DNA from: Escherichia coli
Lineage (GTDB): Bacteria > Pseudomonadota > Gammaproteobacteria > Enterobacterales > Enterobacteriaceae
Reading direction: 5' to 3' (one strand)
Length of the DNA: 64,000 bases
Assembly (NCBI RefSeq): GCF_048403405.1
Contig: NZ_CP183129.1
How positions within the stretch are numbered: the stretch's first letter is position 1; each line of letters begins with the position of its first letter. Shown here in pieces: positions 44,901-47,900 of this stretch. A program made the position numbers.

Positions 44901-47900
44901 CGCGAGTACGGAATCATATAGCTGTTGGGAAGAAAGGATTTTTTAAATATGAAAAGCGATCTCACTATAAAAAATAGATATTGTACAATTCCACAAACGA
45001 AGTTCCGTAAATGGGATGAAATGGACGTTTTACTCTGGAAGTTAGGAAAAAATGATTCGCGTCGCCGTTCAGGAGTATATTATTTAAATGCTTATAAAGA
45101 TGCATATGTACAATATAATAGGGACAAAATAATTAAACATGCATATGCCGCAGGGATTCGTCCAGAGTTATTGGGCGGCGTGGCCTGGATTGAGTCAGGA
45201 GGTATGCCTGAAAATTATAAGTTTCAGATATATGAAACAAAAAGAATGATCGGATCGTTAGATATGCCTGAAAATAAAACATCATTTGGCTCAATGGGTA
45301 TACAAATACGAACCGCAGCGATTACTCTAGGCCTTGACCCTTCAGAATTAACTACCAGAAATCAGTTAGAGTTAGCGACATGCCTGATGGAAGATGATTT
45401 TACCTTTAAAATTGCTGCTACTCATTTAAGAGATCTTGCCCTTTTTGATTATCCCTCTTCGGCAACACTGTATATGACGAATGAGCAGTATATTATGGCT
45501 GGTATTAGATATAATCGTGGTGTTGAACGAGATTTGGGTTTTTTTATTTATTTAATTAATAATTTGCCTGCGCGTGATACAGATGATTATAAATTCATCT
45601 CTTATGGTATGAGGTTGTTAGAGATTAGAGAACATATCAAAAAATTGATCAATGAGTAATCAGAGATGTTAAAAAAACAACTACTATCAATATTTGAAGC
45701 ACTATTATACATAATGCTTACTTATTGGTTAATAGATGCTTTTTTTGCTTTCAATAAGTATGACTGGATGCTTGAGTCGGGAGACAATATTTGCAGTATA
45801 CCTTCCGTTTCAGGCGAAGATCGTATATTGCAAGCAATGATTGCAGCATTTTTTCTTCTGACGCCACTTATTATTCTTATCTTAAGAAAACTCTTTATGC
45901 GGGAAATGTTCGAGTTTTGGCTATATGTATTCACGCTCGTTATTTGTTTGGTTTGTGGTTGGTGGCTTTTTTGGGGACGGTTTATATTTTGCTAATAGTA
46001 AAATCTATGAGAGTCGTTTTAACGGCTCTCATAGACAGAGAAGTTACCAGCTCACCTTCGCCTCAAATCCACCTTGTTCCGCATTCCCAAACTCAACATT
46101 CATGCCATGCAATTTGGCGATTCGCTGGACAATCGATAGCCCAAGTCCACTGCCGGTAGCGGTTTGTCCGGGTGGGCGATAGAAGCGTTCGCCAATTCTC
46201 GCCAGTGCCTCTGGCGTCACACCGGGGCCGTTATCCCTCACGATGAAATTTTCGGCATTCAGCGTGACGTCCACCACGCTGCCCTGTGGACTGTAGCGCA
46301 CGGCGTTATCCAGAAGGTTTCGTACCAACAAACTTAGCAACAGCGGTTGTCCGGTGCGTTTGATGCCGTGGGCATTGAGTGTCAGTCGCACGTCAATTTT
46401 CGCCTGCTGCGCCGTGTGGTAAATATCCATCACCGATGATTGCAGGAGATCTTCAAGCGGGATCTCCGCGACGTCCTGAAGGTTATCCAGTGAGTCCAGC
46501 CGCGATAGCGTGAGCAGTTGATCAACCAGACGAGTAGCACGATCGATTCCGGAATGTAATTGAAGCAGCGCTTTTTTCCGCGCCTGCGGATCATCGTCAG
46601 AGAGCTGCGCAACTTCGGTTTGCACTTTCAGCGCCGTTAACGGGCTACGTAGTTCGTGAGCTGCGTCGGAGGTAAAACGTCGTTCACGAACCATCATCGC
46701 ATGTGTGCGGGCGAACAGTTGATTCAACGACTCAACCAGTGGACGCACTTCGCTGGGTACGCCCGTCGCGTTTAGTGGTTTTTCCGAGTCAGGGTCACGC
46801 ATACGTAGTGCCAGCGCCAGTTTGTTCAGCGGCGCGAGTTCACGACCCAGTAGTACCATCATGATGATTAACATAATCGGCAGTGCGACAAGCCACGGGA
46901 TCAATTGCCCGGCAACAATCGCCAGCGCCATGTCTTCGCGGTATTCCCATTCCTGACCAACAACGATGCGATATTTGCCATCAGGTGAGGTCATCCAGAC
47001 AAAACGCCAGGGATCGTCTTCACCGACCAGTTGCCCGTCAGCAAAACCTTCCCGTTGATAGCTATAGGGAATATCTTCTCCGTTATCGCCATCGTTAAGG
47101 ACCATTCTGCCGTCGTGGGTAAAGATGGCAAAGGTCAGCGCATCGTCATCAACATGACCGTGTTTTAATTTATTTGGCGTCTGTGCCATGCGATCTGCCG
47201 CGTTGATTTCGTTGAGATCGAGCGTACTTAACCGCTTGGCAAACAGCATCAGTTGGGTGTCGAACAACTCATCGACGTTATCCGTTGTTTGTTTCCAGGC
47301 GACAAAGCTGGAAAGCAGCCAGGTCACTGAGGCCAGAATTAAAAAGATTAGCGTCAGCCTGACTCGCAGACTAAGACGTTGGGTAAATTTCATTTCTCAC
47401 CTAATGTGTAGCCAATACCATGAACGGTACGAATAAAATCACTGCCGAGTTTGCGTCGCAGATGATGCACATGCACTTCAACGGCATTACTGGTGACCTC
47501 TTCGTCCCAGGTATACAGTTTCTCTTCAATCAGTTTGCGCGGCAGTACCCGACCAGCGTTACGCATCAGTAATTCCAGCAGGGCAAATTCTTTTGGTTTC
47601 AGTGTTAAGGGTTCGCCAGCCAGCGTGGCGATACGTTTGCCGGGGTCGAGCATGACGTTACCGTGGCGCAGTTCGTTGCTGGCCTGGCCGTTGGTTCGGC
47701 GCATCAGAGCTTCCAGCCTGGCGGCGACTTCTATCAACGCAAAAGGTTTACACAGATAATCGTCAGCTCCCAGACGCAGCCCCTCTACACGTTCCGCTAA
47801 CGCATCGCGCGCGGTCAGGATCAGTACCGGCTCACGCTGACCTTTTTCTCGCCATTCGCGCAAAATATCGCGACCATCCATGCCTGGTAAGGTTAAATCC

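Follow-up and report, generated by a model that had tools for sequence, protein, structure and literature searches.

A candidate Tse3/SLT-like peptidoglycan glycosidase effector encoded between an orphan hcp gene and ygiZ in Escherichia coli

Introduction

What is the function of the 236-aa protein encoded directly behind an orphan hcp gene in Escherichia coli? The question is raised by a 64,000-nucleotide stretch of contig NZ_CP183129.1 (assembly GCF_048403405.1), referred to here as the window, in which a type VI secretion system (T6SS) tube protein is encoded just upstream of a gene that RefSeq labels "hypothetical protein." A known kind of T6SS effector cleaves peptidoglycan at its glycan strands (Tge1–3, VgrG3, and Tse4/Tae17). 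A first-pass annotation of the window, made by eye, noted that the 236-aa protein contains three short motifs resembling those of family-1 soluble lytic transglycosylases, and it proposed a peptidoglycan-targeting cargo effector. The analysis described here supports, in silico, a new and unannotated family of Tse3/SLT-like T6SS peptidoglycan glycosidase effectors. We estimate a probability of roughly 0.7 that hcp, the 236-aa gene, and the downstream gene ygiZ form a mobile, AT-rich T6SS cassette composed of a carrier, a peptidoglycan glycan-cleaving effector, and an immunity protein.

Results

The gene order in the window is parE, an iron-uptake island, ygiN, mdaB, hcp, the 236-aa ORF, ygiZ, qseC, qseB, ygiW, ygiV, and ygiS. 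The features of the locus, in window coordinates, are as follows.

44250..46000, no strand: AT-rich block containing the three-gene cassette, delimited by GC content
44399..45687, plus strand: segment replaced in K-12 (hcp, effector gene, and first 7 codons of ygiZ), from blastn
44467..44946, plus strand: hcp (orphan, 159 aa), T6SS tube protein and putative carrier or chaperone for the effector (TIGR03344: E 4.5e-59, score 199 bits, cut-off 58.9)
44949..45659, plus strand: effector gene, 236 aa, with a predicted SLT/goose-lysozyme-like (Tse3-like) glycan-cleaving domain and no signal peptide
45666..45995, plus strand: ygiZ (109 aa, DUF2645), three hydrophobic segments, predicted cognate immunity protein

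The effector ORF begins with ATG, is preceded by a ribosome-binding site (AGGA, 9 nt upstream), and starts 2 nt after the hcp stop codon. A further 6 nt separate its end from ygiZ. RefSeq names the hcp product "Hcp family type VI secretion system effector" and assigns ygiZ to DUF2645. The GC contents of hcp, the effector gene, and ygiZ are 32%, 35%, and 34%, respectively, as compared to 51% for the whole window. No core T6SS cluster is present within the 64-kb window or in four stretches of strain U1, which need not be the strain of the window; the tRNA-Met (metV) site of U1 carries no island. A −1 frameshift at the junction could in principle fuse Hcp with the effector; as other genera do not share this junction, the option was set aside. 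The effector has no signal peptide, lipobox, or hydrophobic segment, and the highest 19-residue hydropathy in its first 40 residues is −0.4. Lacking a hydrophobic N-terminus, it cannot reach the periplasm via Sec. With 27 kDa, it comes close to the largest cargo that we estimate an Hcp lumen to accommodate.

The three motifs noted at first pass are all present at the positions given for them; GSMGIQIRTAA (residues 114–124, nt 45288–45320) begins 35 residues past the start of AWIESGG. Motif II is extended here by three residues at its N-terminal end.

45183..45203, plus strand: motif I, AWIESGG, residues 79–85; the codon of Glu82, the predicted catalytic acid, is at 45192–45194
45279..45320, plus strand: motif II, TSFGSMGIQIRTAA, residues 111–124; corresponds to S-x-x-G-x-G-L-M-Q of SLT enzymes and to TSIGLGQ of Tse3
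45504..45521, plus strand: motif III, IRYNRG, residues 186–191; counterpart of AYNAG in family-1 lytic transglycosylases

An alignment of 57 diverse family members shows that E82, G85, S112, G114, and G191 are invariant and that K50, T111, Q119, R187, Y188, and Y219 are kept in at least 90% of sequences. With the exceptions of K50 and Y219, all of these positions lie within the three motifs, which argues that the motifs are the conserved core of the family rather than a chance resemblance. Motif II follows the pattern TS-x-G-x-x-x-x-Q and motif III the pattern R-Y-N-R-G, in keeping with SLT motifs II and III, and the proposed likeness to the GLMQ-type and AYNAG-type motifs is upheld by this conservation. 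Among the close Enterobacterales homologues, WIE, TSxGS...Q, and RYNRG are invariant. As to the proposed likeness to the catalytic Glu-Ser motif, the glutamate is invariant in alignments A1, A2, and A3; Ser83 is present in this protein, and across the family its position is occupied by V, A, S, or T.

Searches with the effector alone were uninformative. It has no Pfam match even at E ≤ 10, SLT included, and no match in NCBIfam or PADLOC. A single-sequence phmmer search of PDB sequences gave no credible match; matches to light-harvesting proteins in the PDB search were dismissed as chance (E 0.09 or worse). A profile restricted to Enterobacterales found nothing credible in the PDB, and the AlphaFold model built from it is mediocre (pLDDT 71.6). 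Both the profile search and the model improved only when distant relatives from a search of 1.84 billion proteins were added. The resulting diverse profile, A3, affords twelve matches among all PDB sequences, all of them MltE or Tse3. These matches are marginal, with E values of 0.035–0.05 for eleven sequences and 1.4 for the twelfth. The alignment places Glu82 on the glutamate of the MltE motif AIESGGNP, which we take to be the catalytic E64, and on Glu250 of Tse3. It also places V78, four residues before Glu82, on Tse3 Ile246 and TSFG on Tse3 T274-S275-x-G277. It ends before the RYNRG-type motif, which is why no counterpart of that motif is matched in Tse3. When the 57 trimmed domains were scanned against Pfam, SLT was the only family matched more than once (8 of 57 at E ≤ 0.1, best 1.8e-5). 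An hhalign comparison with an alignment of the MltE family, whose MltE sequence is identical to PDB 3T36 over residues 17–203, gives E 4.7e-5 and a probability of 68% over the Glu motif.

The model built with the distant relatives has a lysozyme-like, mostly helical fold with a substrate groove. Structural comparison ranks Tse3 highest (PDB 4LUQ, score 12.2, 169 residues aligned), followed by Pseudomonas aeruginosa Slt (11.8), MltE (11.5), MltC (10.9), Slt70 and MltF (10.7 each), goose-type lysozyme (9.8), and phiKZ gp144 (9.2). The likeness to transglycosylases suggested at first pass is supported by structure prediction and by profile–profile comparison with the MltE family; the Pfam SLT model does not detect the effector itself. 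In Tse3, the catalytic residue is Glu250, and the positions common to SLT folds are Ile246, Glu250, Gly276, Gln280, and Tyr376 (PMC3792639). We assign V78, E82, G114, Q119, and Y219 as the likely counterparts of these five residues; the first three are set by the profile alignment, and Q119 (two residues off) and Y219 (outside the alignment) were placed by inspection. All five are invariant or at least 90% conserved. E82 is the sole invariant carboxylate among the 57 members, which fits a single-acid mechanism like that of lytic transglycosylases. Tse3, which also has one such carboxylate, is reported to be hydrolytic, that is, lysozyme-like rather than a lytic transglycosylase (PMC3792639). 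A sole invariant carboxylate is thus compatible with either anhydro ends or hydrolysis.

Two database names that touch the effector were followed up. An E. coli entry in UniProt (216 aa, 91% identical) is called "SLT domain-containing." Our guess is that this entry is a 20-aa deletion allele; canonical motif spacing was discarded as the trigger of the name, because that allele likewise has no Pfam SLT match. PHROG phrog_11932 matches the effector (E 2e-29). This PHROG has no known function, and tblastn of the effector against 50,697 phage genomes found nothing, so a phage-endolysin origin was dropped.

The family is broad and modular. Close homologues (54–74% identity, approximately 236–255 aa, none with a Pfam domain) are found only in Enterobacterales, for example in Pectobacterium, Erwinia, Serratia, Chania, and Citrobacter. 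The profile search of 1.84 billion cluster representatives retrieved 374 clusters at E ≤ 1e-3, 242 of them at E ≤ 1e-10. In many relatives, the domain makes up the C-terminal 180–200 residues of proteins of 300–935 aa. The N-terminal parts of 33 long relatives match eCIS_core/DUF4157 (10 cases), OmpA (5), and PAAR, Phage_Mu_F, RHS, and Ntox3 (one each), with weaker matches to PG_binding_1 and M15 peptidases. Two relatives, P0075 and P0165, carry the domain right after the characteristic end of the Rhs core, and neighbors in the AlphaFold database (AFDB) include PAAR, RHS, WXG100, and portal-like fusions. To judge from these matches, the architecture is that of a polymorphic-toxin C-terminal domain mounted on varied delivery modules.

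Genomic context was compared across the window, three Pectobacterium loci (two species), four Serratia loci, two Pseudocitrobacter loci, two species of Buttiauxella, Citrobacter werkmanii, the NCBI genome L014, and four metagenomic contigs. In 13 of 16 loci, with the window and L016 counted, the gene immediately upstream of the effector homologue is an hcp. One metagenomic contig has the order tssJ, tssA, tssB, tssC, hcp, effector, DUF2645, which places the trio inside a core T6SS cluster; a DUF2169-PAAR-phospholipase module lies further on. In Serratia, the cassette is found on a conjugative plasmid with traI and traX, and other cassettes occupy differing chromosomal sites. The flanking genes vary by genus, indicating that the hcp-effector-DUF2645 trio moves as a unit. 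Together with the fold and the toxin-module fusions, this linkage lends in silico support to the earlier proposal of a peptidoglycan-targeting cargo effector.

The partner gene is even more constant than hcp. A DUF2645 gene is directly downstream of the effector in 16 of 16 loci, at −4 to +14 nt from the effector stop codon in the 14 loci measured. These loci include that of a PAAR-fused relative, which is only 36% identical, and those of two relatives whose contigs carry no hcp. No DUF2645 neighbor accompanies the eCIS-type and Rhs-type relatives, as would be the case were immunity required only among sister cells that attack one another. Pairwise identities of effector and DUF2645 correlate (r 0.88, Mantel p ~2e-4). 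DUF2645 diverges faster: the Pectobacterium and E. coli proteins are 38% identical, as compared to 62% for the effector. Such a pattern is typical of immunity proteins.

YgiZ has a basic N-terminus (MLKK), a basic second loop (RKLFMRE), and an acidic first loop of ~27 residues (residues 29–55) that contains a conserved YDWML motif (NKYDWML...C) and a Cys. A second Cys occurs at or near the DUF2645 C-terminus in 11 of 14 sequences. From the positive-inside rule we infer that the first loop and the Cys-bearing C-terminus are periplasmic, and a disulfide could join them. DUF2645/YgiZ is probably the cognate immunity protein, and of a new type. A polytopic membrane protein is an unusual form of immunity for a soluble cell-wall enzyme; the Tge and Tae immunity proteins known to us are periplasmic proteins or lipoproteins. 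If this reading is true, YgiZ would be the first case known to us in which a polytopic membrane protein provides immunity to a peptidoglycan glycosidase effector. In the openly searchable literature, ygiZ appears only as an uncharacterized inner-membrane protein that is activated by BglJ-RcsB and whose overexpression aids cells under sabinene stress (PMC3950696, PMC7181518). No paper in that literature ties ygiZ or DUF2645 to type VI secretion.

The distribution of the three genes within E. coli is uneven. The hcp and effector genes are present in 1261 of 5426 complete genomes, about a quarter, and in 1260 of the 1261 carriers the match covers at least 80% of the pair at 95–100% identity. Among the carriers are strain 83972 and one APEC strain of type O1:K1:H7; AFDB contains an O25b:H4 entry. 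In contrast to this pair, the ygiZ region is present in 5425 of 5426 genomes, and in 77% of E. coli genomes ygiZ is kept as an orphan, with no effector. A blastn comparison of the mdaB–ygiZ region shows that in K-12 the segment 44399–45687 is swapped for an unrelated 160 bp; the remaining ygiZ is 96% identical. Some strains have IS1 in hcp or carry deletion alleles, and the catalytic residues are intact in all four E. coli variants inspected. The 32–35% GC of all three genes in a 51% window, together with the K-12 replacement, suggests that ygiZ came with the cassette and was retained once the weapon was lost. The distribution is probably best explained by loss of hcp and the effector in most E. 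coli (K-12 among them), with ygiZ kept as an orphan immunity gene.

Discussion

Our analysis allows a mechanism to be proposed for the cassette. The effector, which has no Sec signal, would probably occupy the lumen of the hexamer formed by its own Hcp, and the Hcp tube would carry it into the periplasm of a neighboring Gram-negative cell. There, the SLT/goose-lysozyme-like domain would bind the peptidoglycan glycan strand, and Glu82, predicted from fold and motif equivalence to be a single general acid, would cleave the β-1,4 MurNAc-GlcNAc bond. Cleavage would leave 1,6-anhydro-MurNAc if the enzyme works like a lytic transglycosylase, or a reducing end if it works like the muramidase Tse3, for which that product is reported; in both cases, the cell wall would be weakened and the target would lyse. 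YgiZ, as a three-helix inner-membrane protein, would neutralize the effector at the periplasmic face, probably by blocking its groove.

The membrane location of YgiZ invites another reading, in which a lysozyme-fold effector acts at the membrane, on lipid II, on nascent lipid-anchored glycan at the outer face of the inner membrane, or on the membrane itself. It would account for an integral-membrane immunity protein that matches those of pore-forming colicins in size and topology, being the sole idea offered for this build of YgiZ, and it would explain why ygiZ is retained in every E. coli. We nevertheless consider it unlikely. The enzymes that the effector matches best in structure and sequence work on polymerized peptidoglycan, relatives have OmpA and PG_binding_1 domains, which bind the mature wall, and the effector itself has no hydrophobic segment. 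Furthermore, the residues of the glycan groove are conserved (PMC3792639). The associated proposal, in which DUF2645/YgiZ would guard that membrane site as a polytopic membrane immunity protein of a new class, seems equally unlikely to us. A different objection to the cassette reading is that the genes, although intact, are a silent relic in this genome, silenced by H-NS or left with no matching T6SS, so that the effector is never delivered. The AT-rich composition of the cassette (32–35% GC), its orphan position in the 64-kb window, remote from any T6SS gene, the IS1 insertions and deletion alleles of some strains, and the loss of hcp and the effector from most E. coli are all in line with it. 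Such decay is hard to reconcile with a pair that keeps at least 80% coverage and 95–100% identity in 1260 of 1261 carriers, or with intact catalytic residues in the four variants inspected. It would also leave the species-wide retention of ygiZ, which argues for ongoing toxin exposure, unexplained. This may be what has happened in individual strains, and as a description of the present cassette we judge it quite improbable.

The enzyme could instead work for its producer. Other secretion machines have dedicated "space-making" lytic transglycosylases (EtgA, VirB1, and FlgJ), and the T6SS of enteroaggregative E. coli recruits MltE; by analogy, the 236-aa protein would open the producer's own wall for insertion of the T6SS membrane complex. 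A protein with no signal peptide or lipobox has no Sec route to its own periplasm, and its relatives are fused to PAAR, Rhs, and MuF delivery modules. An immunity-like partner is always downstream and persists without the effector in 77% of E. coli genomes, and the cassette lies far from any T6SS cluster and occurs also on a plasmid. On this evidence, a space-making role is very improbable. The preferred reading therefore remains a delivered, glycan-cleaving effector with YgiZ as its immunity protein.

The candidate effector family lies outside every Pfam and NCBIfam model, yet it occurs in approximately a quarter of complete E. coli genomes. If the preferred reading is true, lineages that bear the cassette, such as 83972, APEC O1:K1:H7, and O25b:H4, would have one more antibacterial weapon, and ygiZ, a K-12 gene so far with no known function, would be orphan immunity against the toxin of other E. 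coli. The reading would also raise the question of how ~27 exposed residues of YgiZ neutralize an enzyme.

Among known systems, the immunity proteins of E1-type pore-forming colicins (~110 aa, three transmembrane helices, inner membrane) are those that YgiZ resembles in build. They protect against pore-forming toxins rather than enzymes, and the likeness is one of size and topology, with no sequence relationship claimed. The family-1 lytic transglycosylases (Slt70, MltC, MltD, MltE, and MltF; PF01464; GH23) share the predicted fold, and their Pfam model misses the effector. As compared to MltE, the effector has approximately 20 extra residues between motifs I and II, which form a helix at 89–101. 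It also differs from this group, whose members are housekeeping autolysins, in being a putative toxin module with an immunity partner and in having neither a signal peptide nor a lipobox. The described Hcp-ET toxin domains are not known to include an SLT-like one. In the case of the Hcp-ET proteins of Enterobacteriaceae (Ma et al. 2017, cited in PMC11148199), orphan hcp loci of E. coli likewise encode an antibacterial toxin followed by an immunity gene. There, the toxin is fused to the C-terminus of Hcp (PMC11148199), whereas here it is a separate polypeptide encoded after a 2-nt gap. Three other candidates were set aside: avian pathogenic E. coli has its hcp2B in another locus, hcp2B-vgrG2-xmtU/V (PMC5874247), and there is no relationship to the SleB-like T6SS transglycosylase that Geller et al. 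describe (PMC11148199) or to the Hcp-ET1 island found in Shiga-toxin E. coli.

The effectors of Acinetobacter baumannii known as Tse4 and Tae17 are likewise T6SS-delivered, and their transglycosylase-type glycan cleavage adds to killing (PMC11796386). They differ in being large and bifunctional (transglycosylase plus amidase or endopeptidase) and VgrG-dependent, with unrelated immunity proteins (PMC11796386). The closest structural parallel is Tse3 (Tge1) of Pseudomonas aeruginosa, a peptidoglycan muramidase effector of the H1-T6SS, with Tsi3 as its immunity protein (PDB 4LUQ, 3WA5, 4N7S). Tse3 shares only 14% sequence identity with the 236-aa effector; it is 408 aa long and has an additional N-terminal domain, and three Ca2+ sites lie next to its active site (PMC3792639). 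It is not encoded beside an hcp gene, unlike the effector described here. Tsi3 is a soluble periplasmic protein, whereas the predicted immunity protein of the cassette is the membrane protein DUF2645 in 16 of 16 loci.

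Hcp-Effector Junction and Effector Variants

The hcp stop codon and the effector start codon meet at window positions 44934-44951, where the sequence reads GGATTTTTTAAATATG. A -1 slip on the TTT ahead of the TAA stop would carry the hcp frame into that of the effector, affording an Hcp-toxin fusion. Such a slip is probably meaningless, because other genera do not share this junction; the corresponding gaps are 16 nt in Pectobacterium and Serratia. A joined protein was encountered in a JGI metagenome (P0002, 325 aa), in which an in-frame deletion places residues 12-236 of the effector directly after residues 1-100 of Hcp. 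This protein is either a genuine fusion of Hcp and effector or a product of misassembly. The orphan hcp is split by an IS1A element in one E. coli genome (H22, NZ_OZ510750.1, 731439-733407).

Two variants of the effector itself were observed. In the E. coli allele P0004 (O28ac,42:H7), represented by 86 member sequences, an in-frame deletion between two direct repeats of MPEN has taken out 20 residues at window 45207-45278 (effector residues 87-110). The extra helix between motif I (AWIESGG, residues 79-85) and motif II (residues 111-124) is gone in this allele, and the shortened protein is still without a match to Pfam SLT. In the second variant, a 314-aa protein from an ENA metagenome (P0005), effector residues ~44 to 236 are retained at 97% identity on an unrelated N-terminus that carries a Sec-type signal peptide. 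This protein could be a variant that is secreted, or a chimera produced by assembly.

Genomic Settings of the Effector Domain

The effector domain also occurs in a longer protein of 651 aa (locus L010, 2488-4443), where it is combined with eCIS_core (DUF4157) and OmpA domains. The gene for this protein lies immediately upstream of a contractile-injection-system tube gene, and no DUF2645 gene is found near it. Extracellular injection systems apparently also use the domain, whether carried as cargo or acting as an enzyme that pierces the wall.

In Serratia, the hcp-effector-DUF2645 trio resides on a conjugative plasmid (loci L004, L005 and L025), with traI and traX present on L004 and L005. In E. 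coli, one of 1262 places is likewise on a plasmid.

The window differs from K-12 at two other sites. The mqsR-mqsA toxin-antitoxin pair, which lies between ygiV and ygiS in K-12, is missing from window 49129-49236, leaving ygiV and ygiS only ~108 bp apart. The second site, between parE and ygiN, is empty in K-12 and holds an island in the window:

~36,000-43,250, island between parE and ygiN: TonB-dependent siderophore receptor, Fec-type ABC transporter (ATPase, two permeases and binding protein) and MurR/RpiR regulator

YgiZ and the DUF2645 Family

In Buttiauxella gaviniae (locus L026, 6719-6907), the DUF2645 gene downstream of the effector is cut to 62 aa and, given this truncation, may be a decaying immunity gene. 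Immunity proteins against E1-type pore-forming colicins are three-helix proteins of ~110 aa in the inner membrane. YgiZ (window 45666-45995), the predicted immunity protein of the window, resembles them in both size and three-helix inner-membrane build, which is unexpected for a protein paired with a soluble enzyme that acts on the cell wall.
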